Position numbers and translations under genes: made by a program. The notes under the pieces were generated by a model that searched no databases, was not told the origin of the DNA, and saw only the letters and a list, made by a program, of their open reading frames with translations. DNA of 64,000 nt. Origin: Escherichia coli. Its GTDB lineage: Bacteria > Pseudomonadota > Gammaproteobacteria > Enterobacterales > Enterobacteriaceae. Of the stretch, positions 12,255 through 15,794 are shown piece after piece (within the stretch, counting starts at the first letter, position 1; each line of letters begins with the position of its first letter). The stretch is from NCBI RefSeq assembly GCF_030384885.1, contig NZ_CP128613.1; one strand, given 5' to 3'.

Positions 12255-12391
12255 TGTAGGACGGATAAAACGTTCAAGCTGCATCTGGCGATACGGTGCG
12301 CAATGCCTGATGCGACGCTGTCGCGTCTTATCATGCCTACGAGTTCAATGCCCTGTGTAGGCCAGATAAGGCGTTTACGCCGCATCCGGCA
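12255..12391. repeat. BIME / REP element cluster
   Basis: Copies of the REP palindrome (e.g. tgtaggccagataaggcgtttacgccgcatccggcac and gcctgatgcgacgctgtcgcgtcttatcatgcctac) in the tusA-zntA convergent intergenic region. Confidence 0.8.
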
Positions 12392-12414
12392 CGCAAACGT
12401 AATGGAATGCACAA

Positions 12415-12723
12415 ATGGATTATTTAATTCCAGTTTGTCTGGTATTGCTGGGATTGCTCGCGATCTTCACCCCCAATTGGCTGATCCCTGTTTTTATCGT
12501 CGTGGGGGGATGGCTGGGGGTACTTGCCTGGGGTTGGCTCTGGCTAATGATTTTTTTACCTTTACTTAACGGTGTCGGGCTTGCTTATGCCCTGTGGTTG
12601 ATGTTCAAAAGGCCATCCATAGCATCCCGCCTGGTTGCTGCATGCTGTGTTATCTCCGTCATTCTGATGTTAGCGCTTTATTATGCTTTCCTGACTATGC
12701 CGCCGTTCCCGCCTCAGCACTAA
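12415..12723 (+). CDS. hypothetical small hydrophobic protein (unverified ORF)
   Basis: 102-aa ORF directly after the BIME; Trp/Leu-rich with 2-3 predicted transmembrane segments (GGWLGVLAWGWLWLMIFLPLL); weak Shine-Dalgarno; could be a chance ORF. Confidence 0.3.
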   Translation: MDYLIPVCLVLLGLLAIFTPNWLIPVFIVVGGWLGVLAWGWLWLMIFLPLLNGVGLAYALWLMFKRPSIASRLVAACCVISVILMLALYYAFLTMPPFPPQH

Positions 12724-12755
12724 GCCTGATAGCCAGAGGCTATCAGGCAACACTT

Positions 12756-14954
12756 TTACTTCCTGCGCAACAATCTTAACGCATTCGCTGTCACCAGCAC
12801 CGTCGCACCCGTATCTGCCAGCACCGCCAGCCATAGTCCGGTCATCCCTAACAGCGTTGTGACGAGGAAGATCCCTTTCAGCCCCAGCGCAATGGTGATG
12901 TTCTGGCGGATATTGGCGTGAGTGGCGCGTGCCAGTTCAATCATCTGCACCAGGCCGCGCAGGTGGTTATGGGTTAATGCAGCGTCGGCGGTTTCCAGCG
13001 CCACATCTGTGCCACTGCCCATTGCAATCCCTATGGCGGCAGCTTTCATGGCGGGCGCGTCGTTAATACCGTCACCGACCATCGCCAGAGGCGCATGTTG
13101 ATTCAGCTCGGTCACCGCTTTGACTTTATCTTCTGGTAATAGGCCCGCTTTAAATTTCAGCCCCAGTTCACCGGCGATTGCCGCCGCTGCGTGTGGATTA
13201 TCGCCAGTGAGGATCACTCCTTTGACGCCCAGGGCGCTCAGTTCGCTGATGGCAGTTGCGGCGTCGGCGCGCAGGGTATCCTGCAATGCAATGACACCCA
13301 GCACTTCATCGTTACGCACCACCAGTACTACCGTTTGCCCGGCGCTTTCCAGTTCGTTAATTAAACCAGCAAATGCAACAGCCGGATGTTTTCCGGCAGC
13401 GCATATCAACACGCGCTCACCGTTAATCAGTGCTTCAATACCAGACCCGACCAGCGCCCGCTGTGATTCGGCGGCGGGAATGGCGAGTTCAGCAACCTGT
13501 GCTTCGCGTACGATGGCTTGCGCCAGTGGATGCGTCGCGCCTTGCTCGACCGCCGCTGCCAGTGTCAGCAGTTCAGATTCACTAATACCCGTTGCCGGAT
13601 GAATCGCGGTAACGCGCGGTTTACCGACGGTCAGCGTGCCGGTTTTATCAAACGCCACCTGGGTAACACGACCTAGTTGTTCCAGCGCCGCACCGCCTTT
13701 AATCAACGCCCCATGACGCGCTGCTGCCGCCAGCCCGGAGGTGATCGCCGCAGGTGTTGAGATCACCAGCGCACACGGGCAGCCAATCAGCAGCAGCGTC
13801 AGCCCTTTATAAATCCACTCCTGCCAGCTTGCGGCAAACAGCAGCGGTGGCACCAGCGTCACCAGCAGGGCGACGGCCATAATCGCTGGCGTGTAAATAC
13901 GGCTGAAACGGTCGATAAACCGCTCAATGGGCGCGCGGCGCTCTTCGGCTTCTTCGATCAGTTTCAGAATCCGGTCAATGGCGCTGGCACCCGGTTCTGA
14001 CAGCACTTCCAGCGTTACCAGACGGTCTACGCTGGTGGCGCCTGCAGGAACTTTATCACCCGTCGCGCGCTCCACCGGAATGGATTCGCCGGTCAGGGCG
14101 CTTTCATCAAAACTGGCAAAGGGCGAGAGCAGTTTACCGTCGGCAGGTAAACGCCCACCTGCCGCAACTTCGATAACATCGCCCGGACGCAGGCTGTTAA
14201 TTGCTACCTCTTCACGCTTGCCATTACGCAGGCGCGTGGCGGTTTCCGGTTTCAGCGCCATTAACGCGCTGACCCCTTGACGCGCGCGGCTGGCGGCCCA
14301 GCCTTCCAGTCGTTCACCAATCAAAAACAGCAGCAACACCATCGCAGCTTCAGCCGTTGCGCCAATAAACAGCGCACCAATAGCGGCTACGCTCATTAAG
14401 GTTTCAATAGCGAAGTAGCTGCCGGATTTGATCAGCCGTAATGCCTGACGAGCAATCGGGTACAGCCCAACCAGCGTGGTCGCGATAAACGCCAGTTGAC
14501 CGAACGGATGATTAAACTGCTCCAGACCCCAGCTGATTGCCATCAACACGATTAGCGTAATCAGCGGCAGATTCTCTTTCAGGCGTGATGCTTGCGGTTC
14601 TACGGCTGCCTGTTCATCGCGCAGGGAATAGCCCGCTTTTTGCACCGCAGATTCAACTTGTGCACGGATGTCATTGTCGGCATCAACCACCAGTTTTTCG
14701 GTGGCGAACAGCACCTGCACCTGATTCACGCCTGCAAGCTGGCGCACGGCATTTTCTACCTTGCGCGCGCAGGCGGCGCAGTCCATGCCGCTGACTTTCC
14801 AGCTATAGCGGGTGCCGGAGACGTTTTCAGAGAGCGTTGGCGTGCTGGAACATGCGCCGTCGCAGCAACAGTCGTTGACGTTCTGTACCGTGGTTAGCGG
14901 TTTGAACGCAGAAAATTGAGGGGCTTTCTTGCCGTGATTGTCAGGAGTCGACAT
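12756..14954 (-). CDS. zntA: Zn(II)/Cd(II)/Pb(II)-translocating P-type ATPase ZntA
   Basis: 732 aa; GMDCAACARKVE metal-binding motif, CPC, DKTGT; recognised as E. coli ZntA. Confidence 0.97.
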   Translation of the reverse strand: MSTPDNHGKKAPQFSAFKPLTTVQNVNDCCCDGACSSTPTLSENVSGTRYSWKVSGMDCAACARKVENAVRQLAGVNQVQVLFATEKLVVDADNDIRAQVESAVQKAGYSLRDEQAAVEPQASRLKENLPLITLIVLMAISWGLEQFNHPFGQLAFIATTLVGLYPIARQALRLIKSGSYFAIETLMSVAAIGALFIGATAEAAMVLLLFLIGERLEGWAASRARQGVSALMALKPETATRLRNGKREEVAINSLRPGDVIEVAAGGRLPADGKLLSPFASFDESALTGESIPVERATGDKVPAGATSVDRLVTLEVLSEPGASAIDRILKLIEEAEERRAPIERFIDRFSRIYTPAIMAVALLVTLVPPLLFAASWQEWIYKGLTLLLIGCPCALVISTPAAITSGLAAAARHGALIKGGAALEQLGRVTQVAFDKTGTLTVGKPRVTAIHPATGISESELLTLAAAVEQGATHPLAQAIVREAQVAELAIPAAESQRALVGSGIEALINGERVLICAAGKHPAVAFAGLINELESAGQTVVLVVRNDEVLGVIALQDTLRADAATAISELSALGVKGVILTGDNPHAAAAIAGELGLKFKAGLLPEDKVKAVTELNQHAPLAMVGDGINDAPAMKAAAIGIAMGSGTDVALETADAALTHNHLRGLVQMIELARATHANIRQNITIALGLKGIFLVTTLLGMTGLWLAVLADTGATVLVTANALRLLRRK

Positions 14955-14984
14955 GGCATCCTCCGGTTAAGTTTTTTCTCATTA

Positions 14985-15021
14985 ACCGAAGGATACACTC
15001 TGGAGTCGACTCCAGAGTCAA
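14985..15021 (-). promoter_or_regulatory. zntA promoter with ZntR (MerR-type) operator
   Basis: Perfect 22-bp palindrome ACTCTGGAGTCGACTCCAGAGT (14997-15018) lying between TTGACT and TATCCT hexamers on the zntA strand with a long MerR-type spacer, upstream of the zntA GGAGG/ATG. Confidence 0.8.
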
Positions 15022-15027
15022 GTTTTA

Positions 15028-15654
15028 TCAGAGATACAGCGAGCGGACGATGAGGAAATGTCCGGCAAAGTAGCAGGCCGCAGCAATCGCGTTGTCCGCA
15101 CGGAAGCGTCGGCGATAGTGACTACCCAGCCAGACAAAGTTACTTATAAACAGCAACGAAGCGCCGACAAACGCAGAGAGCGCCGGAGCGGTCGGACGGA
15201 AGAACCACAGTTCACCTGCCAGCCACACCATCACCAGCGTCATGCCGATAAACGTGCAGATAGGCCAACGATACTCTTCCAGACGCGTCCAGATAATCGC
15301 CAGTAACAGCGCACCCAGCACCAGCAACACCAGCGGCAAAGGCCAGAAGAAAGAGAGCGTCATCTGGCTGGCGAAATAGATGGTGTACAACAGGTGCGAG
15401 AGGAAAAACGCGCCGATGGCGTACATCAGACGTTGACGTGGCAACAGGGTTAGCGCATCGCCCAGCAGTGAGGCGCACAGTCCCGCCAGCACCAGATAGC
15501 TAATGGCGTCGAACATCGGCGCTTGCCAGGCCAGCAACAGCAGGAGAAGAAGGGTTAATGGTTTAAATACCCAGCGTTGCCAGGTTGGCCCACGATACGA
15601 TGCATCCACAGATAGCCATGCGGAAAGACAGACAGCGATAAACGACCAAAGCAT
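15028..15654 (-). CDS. yhhN: inner membrane protein YhhN
   Basis: 208-aa multi-pass membrane protein, recognised as E. coli YhhN. Confidence 0.9.
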
Positions 15655-15794
15655 CTTAGTTCCTTGAATTCGTTATTTTTTCGTAAGCGGAATGCCTACG
15701 GTCTTGCTTCCAGTTTAGTGGCGAGGGTGGACGGATGACAACACCATAACTGGCAGGGTATGCTTATTTCCGCATTTTCCGATGAGGGATAAAG

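Follow-up and report, generated by a model that had tools for sequence, protein, structure and literature searches.

The known ZntR operator in the zntA promoter of an Escherichia coli chromosomal segment

The DNA analyzed here is a stretch of 64 kb from Escherichia coli, referred to as the window. The site under study lies between two genes encoded on the minus strand. The upstream gene is yhhN (15028..15654, 208 aa), which was assigned by annotation and by a match to Pfam PF07947 at 4.3e-47. Downstream lies zntA (12756..14954), a 732-aa reading frame with its ATG at 14954-14952, which was assigned by NCBIfam NF033775 and RefSeq and starts as does K-12 b3469. The ORF scored 1439.5 bits against NF033775 (cutoff 1240) and aligned over residues 1-732 of 732. 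The zntA product is a Zn(II)/Cd(II)/Pb(II)-exporting P1B-type ATPase. The gene that follows the site is this Zn/Cd/Pb exporter in full length, as expected for a PzntA promoter controlled by ZntR.

On the minus strand, the junction between the two genes reads ...ctc TGA taaaac TTGACT ctggagtcgactccagagtg TATCCT tcggttaatgagaaaaaacttaacc GGAGG atgcc ATG. The TGA stop codon of yhhN (15030-15028) is located 6 nt before the −35 hexamer and sets the upstream limit of the promoter. Both hexamers, TTGACT at 15016..15021 (−35) and TATCCT at 14990..14995 (−10), were read directly from the minus strand, and TTGACT is named as the −35 of PzntA in PMC3431237. The spacer between them (14996..15015) is 20 bp long by direct count. 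The same length is given in PMC1526738, PMC7911910, and PMC3431237, whereas PMC9189660 gives 19 bp. Transcription is predicted to start on the minus strand at 14982..14984 (A at 14983), about 7 nt past the −10, which is the usual distance. The leader of about 30 nt carries a Shine-Dalgarno sequence, GGAGG (14960..14964, minus strand), which lies 5 nt before the ATG and is conserved across species.

The promoter contains a perfect 22-bp palindrome, ACTCTGGAGTCGACTCCAGAGT, at 14997..15018, which is annotated here as the ZntR operator without assignment to a strand. Its promoter context on the minus strand is cTTGACTctggagtcgactccagagtgTATCCT, and it is located 36 nt upstream of the zntA ORF. An earlier note on this DNA, made from the sequence alone, had reported a perfect 22-bp palindrome within 14985-15021, and the repeat finder confirmed it, with arms of 11+11 nt, a gap of 0, and 100% complementarity. 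The dyad centre falls between 15007 and 15008. The bases that flank the palindrome, c at 14996 and c at 15019, give no extension. Within the 64-kb window ACTCTGGAGTCGACTCCAGAGT is present as a single copy, inside the interval originally reported, and no second copy was found in the window at up to 3 mismatches. A scan of the window for perfect palindromes with arms of at least 8 nt returned the operator only.

The analytic expectation for a perfect 22-bp palindrome is ~0.015 per window. In 100 dinucleotide-preserving shuffles of the window, ACTCTGGAGTCGACTCCAGAGT itself occurred 0 times, and some perfect 22-bp palindrome appeared anywhere in the shuffled sequence in 2 of the 100. The operator also contains GTCGAC, the SalI site. 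These figures leave a little room for a chance palindrome, or for mere restriction-site symmetry without function, but such an origin is vanishingly improbable. The sequence is exactly that of a characterized site at the expected place upstream of zntA, it is invariant in ~5400 E. coli genomes, and it is kept together with the promoter hexamers across genera. Because the palindrome is conserved, the chance reading was excluded.

The position of the palindrome relative to the promoter elements was described in the earlier note as within the elongated spacer. This is correct for 19 bp of it. The first 3 bp (ACT), however, double as the final 3 bp of the −35 hexamer, and because the spacer is 20 bp long the 22-bp palindrome does not lie wholly inside it. 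A single base pair (G) separates the end of the palindrome from the −10. MerR-family promoters are recognized by a dyad operator between or overlapping the −35 and −10 and by an over-long spacer of 19-20 bp, 20 bp in the case of ZntR. Both features were found at this site, where the spacer is 20 bp. If transcription starts at about 14983, the dyad centre would be located near −24.5. A generic sigma-70 scan gave no promoter at the site. The scanner accepts spacers of 16-18 bp only, so this null result was expected and is uninformative; escape from a 16-18 bp scanner is a hallmark of this promoter class.

The junction was compared with E. coli K-12. Between the yhhN stop codon and the zntA ATG, both included, every base is the same in the window, in K-12 MG1655, and in strain 2013C-4282. 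The K-12 promoter has the same palindrome, TTGACT, 20-bp spacer, TATCCT, and downstream gene as the window, with 0 differences in the promoter and a few in the flanking coding sequence. The PzntA/ZntR operator of K-12 was reportedly characterized by Brocklehurst et al. in 1999 and by Outten et al. in 1999. A comparison with the characterized PzntA had been proposed in the earlier note, and no mismatch to K-12 MG1655 was found. The palindrome had also been called a known site there, which is borne out by PMC1526738, where exactly this 22-mer is given as the ZntR site, a palindrome within a 20-bp spacer; all 22 of 22 bases agree. It was suggested there as an anchor for zntA, and the strand (minus) and the start codon (ATG at 14954) both agree with the annotation. 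We regard it as almost certain that this sigma-70 promoter is PzntA and that the palindrome is its ZntR operator. The sequence offers nothing that speaks against this reading.

The gene order in RefSeq is ftsY, rsmD, yhhL, yhhM, yhhN, zntA, both in the best-matching genome and in K-12 MG1655. Among 5425 complete E. coli genomes, 5397 carry the 56-bp core promoter at 99% identity or more, with one copy per genome and never on plasmids. A longer query of 301 bp (14850-15150), which includes flanking coding sequence, gave a single match in each of 5425 complete E. coli genomes out of 5426, always on the chromosome and under yhhN and zntA. Over this stretch, identity was 95-99% in 5423 genomes. 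Only 1 of the 5426 genomes, that of strain 2013C-4282 (human stool, USA), matched the 301-bp stretch at 100%, and the window therefore represents an uncommon lineage at this locus.

A further peculiarity of the window was seen at the other end of zntA. The intergenic region between zntA and tusA (12300-12760) measures ~0.5 kb here versus ~50 bp in K-12. It contains a hypothetical ORF of 102 aa on the plus strand (12415-12723) with no Pfam match. No more than 317 of the 5426 E. coli genomes carry the full zntA-tusA segment. The ~90 nt at its beginning (12301-12392) belong to a dispersed repeat, present at a median of 5 copies in each genome.

Conservation beyond E. coli was assessed by a scan for CTCTGGAGTNNACTCCAGAG over a bacterial and archaeal collection with one genome per species, which yielded at least 120 loci. 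These were picked by 18 core bases alone, so the conservation of those bases is uninformative and that of all other features is informative. Among the 120 matches listed, the −35 was TTGACT in 118, its TTGA lying outside the search pattern, and TAnnnT was located exactly 20 bp downstream of the −35 in 113. The outermost bases of the 22-mer were A and T in 112 of the 120 listed. In 107 of these matches, a ZntA homologue on the same strand has its start no more than 400 nt downstream; the sequence ends less than 300 nt downstream in 6 of the 13 listed loci that have none. Information content over the matches listed was ~2 bits at TTGA and at positions 1, 2, and 6 of the −10, the only positions of that hexamer where it was high, and fell to ~0.2-0.3 bits just outside the −35 and −10. 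The two central bases of the palindrome vary, with CG in 61 of the 120 matches listed. Because the features outside the search pattern are conserved along with it, the palindrome, both hexamers, the 20-bp spacing, and zntA form one conserved unit across Enterobacterales.

Some loci in the scan had a different gene downstream. At four of them (L005, L042, L052, and L064), the operator core with TTGACT, 20-bp spacing, and TAnnnT lies directly upstream of a MerR-family gene of 145-147 aa, not of a P-type ATPase. At a fifth, L012, the core and TTGACT precede a MerR-family gene of 149 aa, and there is no TAnnnT at 20 bp. All five are from metagenome-assembled genomes of Acidobacteria, Gemmatimonadetes, and Bryobacterales. 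The arrangement at the first four suggests autoregulated ZntR/CadR-like units with a near-identical operator in distant phyla.

A possible second ZntR half-site at the start of zntA was also considered. The first codons of the gene, ATG TCG ACT CCT GA (14941-14952), share 11 of 12 bases with the operator sequence GTCGACTCCAGA (15005-15016). The repeat (GTCGACTCCTGA versus GTCGACTCCAGA in the operator) is kept in 23 of 119 species among the matches listed, and the candidate was rejected. Across the species listed, the start codons vary synonymously (ACT/ACA/ACG, CCA/CCC), and the resemblance is probably a by-product of the MSTP(D/E) N terminus.

A palindrome of this kind can also form a hairpin in RNA, and it might mainly serve as a terminator or 3'-end stabilizer of yhhN, or as an antisense terminator on the plus strand. 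As RNA it can fold on both strands, with energies of about −15 to −18 kcal/mol and z of about −2.2 to −2.5. The gene yhhN ends 6 nt before the −35, its stop codon being 10 nt upstream of the palindrome, and no other terminator lies between. In addition, a terminator scan flagged the plus strand at 14997-15028, where a 9-bp stem is followed by CAAGTTTTAT. On the sense strand of yhhN and zntA, however, the hairpin is followed by GUGUAUCCUUCGG with no U-tract, and this strand was not flagged by the scan; the hairpin plus U-tract of a rho-independent terminator is thus absent from the transcribed strand. The T-run on the plus strand is the complement of the AAAAC ahead of the −35, and the plus-strand flag is most likely a false positive. 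The cross-species data also speak against a terminator. The TTGACT and TAnnnT partners are found at fixed spacing in 113-118 of the 120 matches listed, and the loci from Acidobacteria and Gemmatimonadetes keep these promoter partners without an upstream yhhN and are followed by a merR-family gene. The palindrome is conserved in sequence and not in pairing alone, as expected for a protein site rather than a terminator. We consider a primary role as an RNA hairpin very unlikely.

Given that the palindrome is a protein-binding operator, the regulator might be another MerR-family member of E. coli, such as CueR or SoxR, since a dyad in a long spacer is the common layout of all MerR-family promoters (PMC9189660, PMC1526738). 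The details of the site make this extremely improbable. The CueR consensus, ACCTTCCC-N5-TGGAAGGT, is unrelated and is associated with a 19-bp spacer (PMC1526738). Among these regulators the 20-bp spacer is specific to ZntR (PMC1526738, PMC3431237); PMC3431237 describes it as peculiar to ZntR among MerR-family promoters. The palindrome matches the published ZntR site exactly (PMC1526738), and the regulated gene is zntA. PMC7911910 likewise gives a 20-bp spacer and reports an identical operator in Enterobacter. According to PMC4507017, PzntA is the only known ZntR operator in E. coli, and in PMC3431237 the −35, spacer, and −10 of PzntA are protected by ZntR from DNase I.

The ZntR reading was set against related systems of the family. 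The founding member is MerR at PmerT/PmerR of Tn21/Tn501, whose promoter likewise combines an over-long spacer with a dyad between the two hexamers and shares the −35 TTGACT with PzntA (PMC3431237). For both MerR and ZntR, a bound dimer switches the promoter from off to on through metal-driven DNA distortion (PMC9189660, PMC1526738, PMC7911910). The MerR site is a 7-4-7 dyad with a 19-bp spacer and responds to Hg(II) (PMC1526738), whereas the dyad of PzntA is 11+11 without a gap, with a 20-bp spacer and a response to Zn/Cd/Pb. The merR gene is adjacent, divergent, and self-regulating; zntR, in contrast, is unlinked and lacks a ZntR site (PMC1526738). CueR at PcopA of E. coli belongs to the same family as ZntR, shares its mechanism, and is the closest relative with DNA- and RNA polymerase-bound structures. 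It differs in its 19-bp spacer and unrelated half-site (PMC1526738) and in its monovalent metals, Cu/Ag/Au. CadR and PbrR of Pseudomonas and Cupriavidus are MerR-family regulators of divalent-metal export ATPases, and CadR matches ZntR at E = 1e-24. Their promoters have a TTGACT −35 and a dyad in the spacer, as does PzntA (PMC3431237), but their spacers are 19 bp long, their dyads are imperfect, and the gene for the regulator is usually a neighbour (PMC1526738, PMC3431237).

The gene for the regulator was searched for by tblastn. No zntR was found in the window (best E = 0.2), and the regulator therefore acts in trans. In NZ_CP027579.1, which matches the window at 100%, zntR is located at 4059265-4059690, ~150 kb from zntA, and lies between yhdN and arfA as in K-12. 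The ZntR protein of that genome is identical to K-12 ZntR at 141 of 141 residues, so that the closest genome encodes the cognate regulator of PzntA. The window presumably stems from that strain or from one nearly identical to it. This arrangement agrees with PMC1526738, where zntR is described as mostly apart from zntA and without autoregulation.

Binding of ZntR, induction by metal, and distortion of the DNA at the present site are predicted from the literature on the identical K-12 sequence. PMC9189660 summarizes the DNA-distortion model and reports that in vivo ZntR at PzntA turns from repressor to activator as zinc rises. PMC2611976 states, with reference to Outten et al. 1999, that Zn-ZntR activates the promoter by distorting the DNA. 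The accounts of apo-ZntR differ, with ~4-fold activation in vitro (PMC2611976) versus at most 2-fold repression in vivo (PMC9189660). The only ZntR entry in the PDB is 1Q08, the metal-binding and dimerization fragment (residues 43-141) without DNA, and the PDB holds no ZntR-DNA complex. The nearest structures bound to DNA (4WLW, 4WLS) or to RNA polymerase (6LDI, 6XH7) are those of CueR. The geometry of the distortion at PzntA is presumed to resemble that in the CueR and MerR structures.

According to this model, the 20-bp spacing would offset the hexamers by ~100 degrees in helical phase and hold them ~1 nm farther apart than suits RNA polymerase, and the bare promoter would be weak as a result. 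A ZntR homodimer would bind the palindrome with one DNA-binding domain per 11-bp half-site. With the metal-free dimer bound, the promoter would be poorly active or slightly repressed. Binding of Zn(II), and also of Cd(II) or Pb(II), to the dimer would kink and underwind the centre of the operator. The kinked and underwound operator would realign the −35 and −10 and allow RNA polymerase to form the open complex, which would lead to more transcription of the zinc-export ATPase.

A second structural feature was noted downstream of the operator. An inverted repeat or hairpin, TCGGTTAA-N11-TTAACCGG, is found at 14963-14989 on the minus strand, between the zntA −10 and the Shine-Dalgarno sequence. 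The selection of the loci had not taken into account the leaders of zntA in the cross-species matches listed (loci L003-L122). In 75 of the 93 distinct leaders among these matches, the minimum-energy hairpin begins 1-2 nt past the −10, and in 53 of the 93 it ends at the Shine-Dalgarno sequence or 1 nt into it. The median energy over the same 93 leaders is −13.2 kcal/mol with a median z of −2.6. The E. coli hairpin present in the window (14989-14963) is the weakest version among the matches listed, with −6.7 kcal/mol and z = −1.6.

Most Enterobacteriaceae leaders among the matches listed share the AT-rich element CCGGTTAATGA-N8-TCATTAACCGG. An 11-bp helix was named by hand on the Enterobacteriaceae alignment of the matches listed and was 88.6% paired, versus only 20-59% for control helices slid along the same alignment. 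Compensatory changes in these matches were seen at 3 helix pairs: 10 sequences have GC in place of UA, 5 have AU in place of GC, and 1 has UG in place of GC. The covariation score of the helix was reached by 0 of 500 shuffles. RNAalifold on MAFFT alignments of the leaders returned no pairs in either group, as indels shift the register. Erwiniaceae leaders carry unrelated, GC-rich hairpins at the same position, and a structure is therefore favored over a protein-binding sequence. Sequestration of the Shine-Dalgarno sequence by the hairpin was considered and rejected as weakly supported; 1-2 of its nucleotides are paired in most of the species listed.

When Enterobacteriaceae leaders among the matches listed were folded from the predicted +1, the median energy was −2.4 kcal/mol, compared with −12.6 kcal/mol when they were folded from the −10. 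The 5' arm lies upstream of the expected +1, and the full hairpin would therefore occur in read-through RNA only. Among the matches listed, the distance from the end of yhhN to the −35 is 6-40 nt across Enterobacterales, and no terminator lies in it. In 98 of 110 loci among these matches, the gene directly upstream is a co-directional yhhN, so close that a terminator would not fit; this holds for all 26 Erwiniaceae with enough upstream sequence. Transcripts of yhhN would have to cross the ZntR operator.

Database and literature searches were also made for the leader. A search with Rfam 15 over 14400-15700 at E ≤ 1 gave two sub-threshold matches only (E = 0.3-0.5), which were judged spurious; their scores were 19.7 and 12.5 against gathering scores of 90 and 40, respectively. 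Neither Rfam nor the literature searched yielded a description of a zntA leader hairpin or UTR element, and a full-text search for the −10/leader string GTATCCTTCGGTTAATG returned no paper. One could imagine that PzntA is part of a composite element, in which the leader hairpin separates read-through RNA from RNA initiated under ZntR. We regard this as a tentative and rather unlikely proposal. In yhhN read-through RNA, the hairpin might dampen translation, provide a processing site, or act as a stability element. If this were true, ZntA synthesis would stay zinc-controlled despite read-through from yhhN.

Among MerR-type distortion promoters, PzntA is the textbook case with a 20-bp spacer, and it is widely used in biosensors for zinc, cadmium, and lead. 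The ZntR operator in the zntA promoter is an already known site of K-12, and the operator in the window holds nothing biologically new. Possible further interest is confined to the conserved leader hairpin and the terminator-less yhhN-zntA junction. For annotation, the operator reliably anchors zntA, fixing its strand, promoter, and start codon, and it places the window in the ftsYEX-rsmD-yhhLMN-zntA-tusA region of the E. coli chromosome. The cross-species scan confirms independently, by comparison, that the palindrome and the −35 and −10 with their 20-bp spacing stay linked to zntA as a unit.
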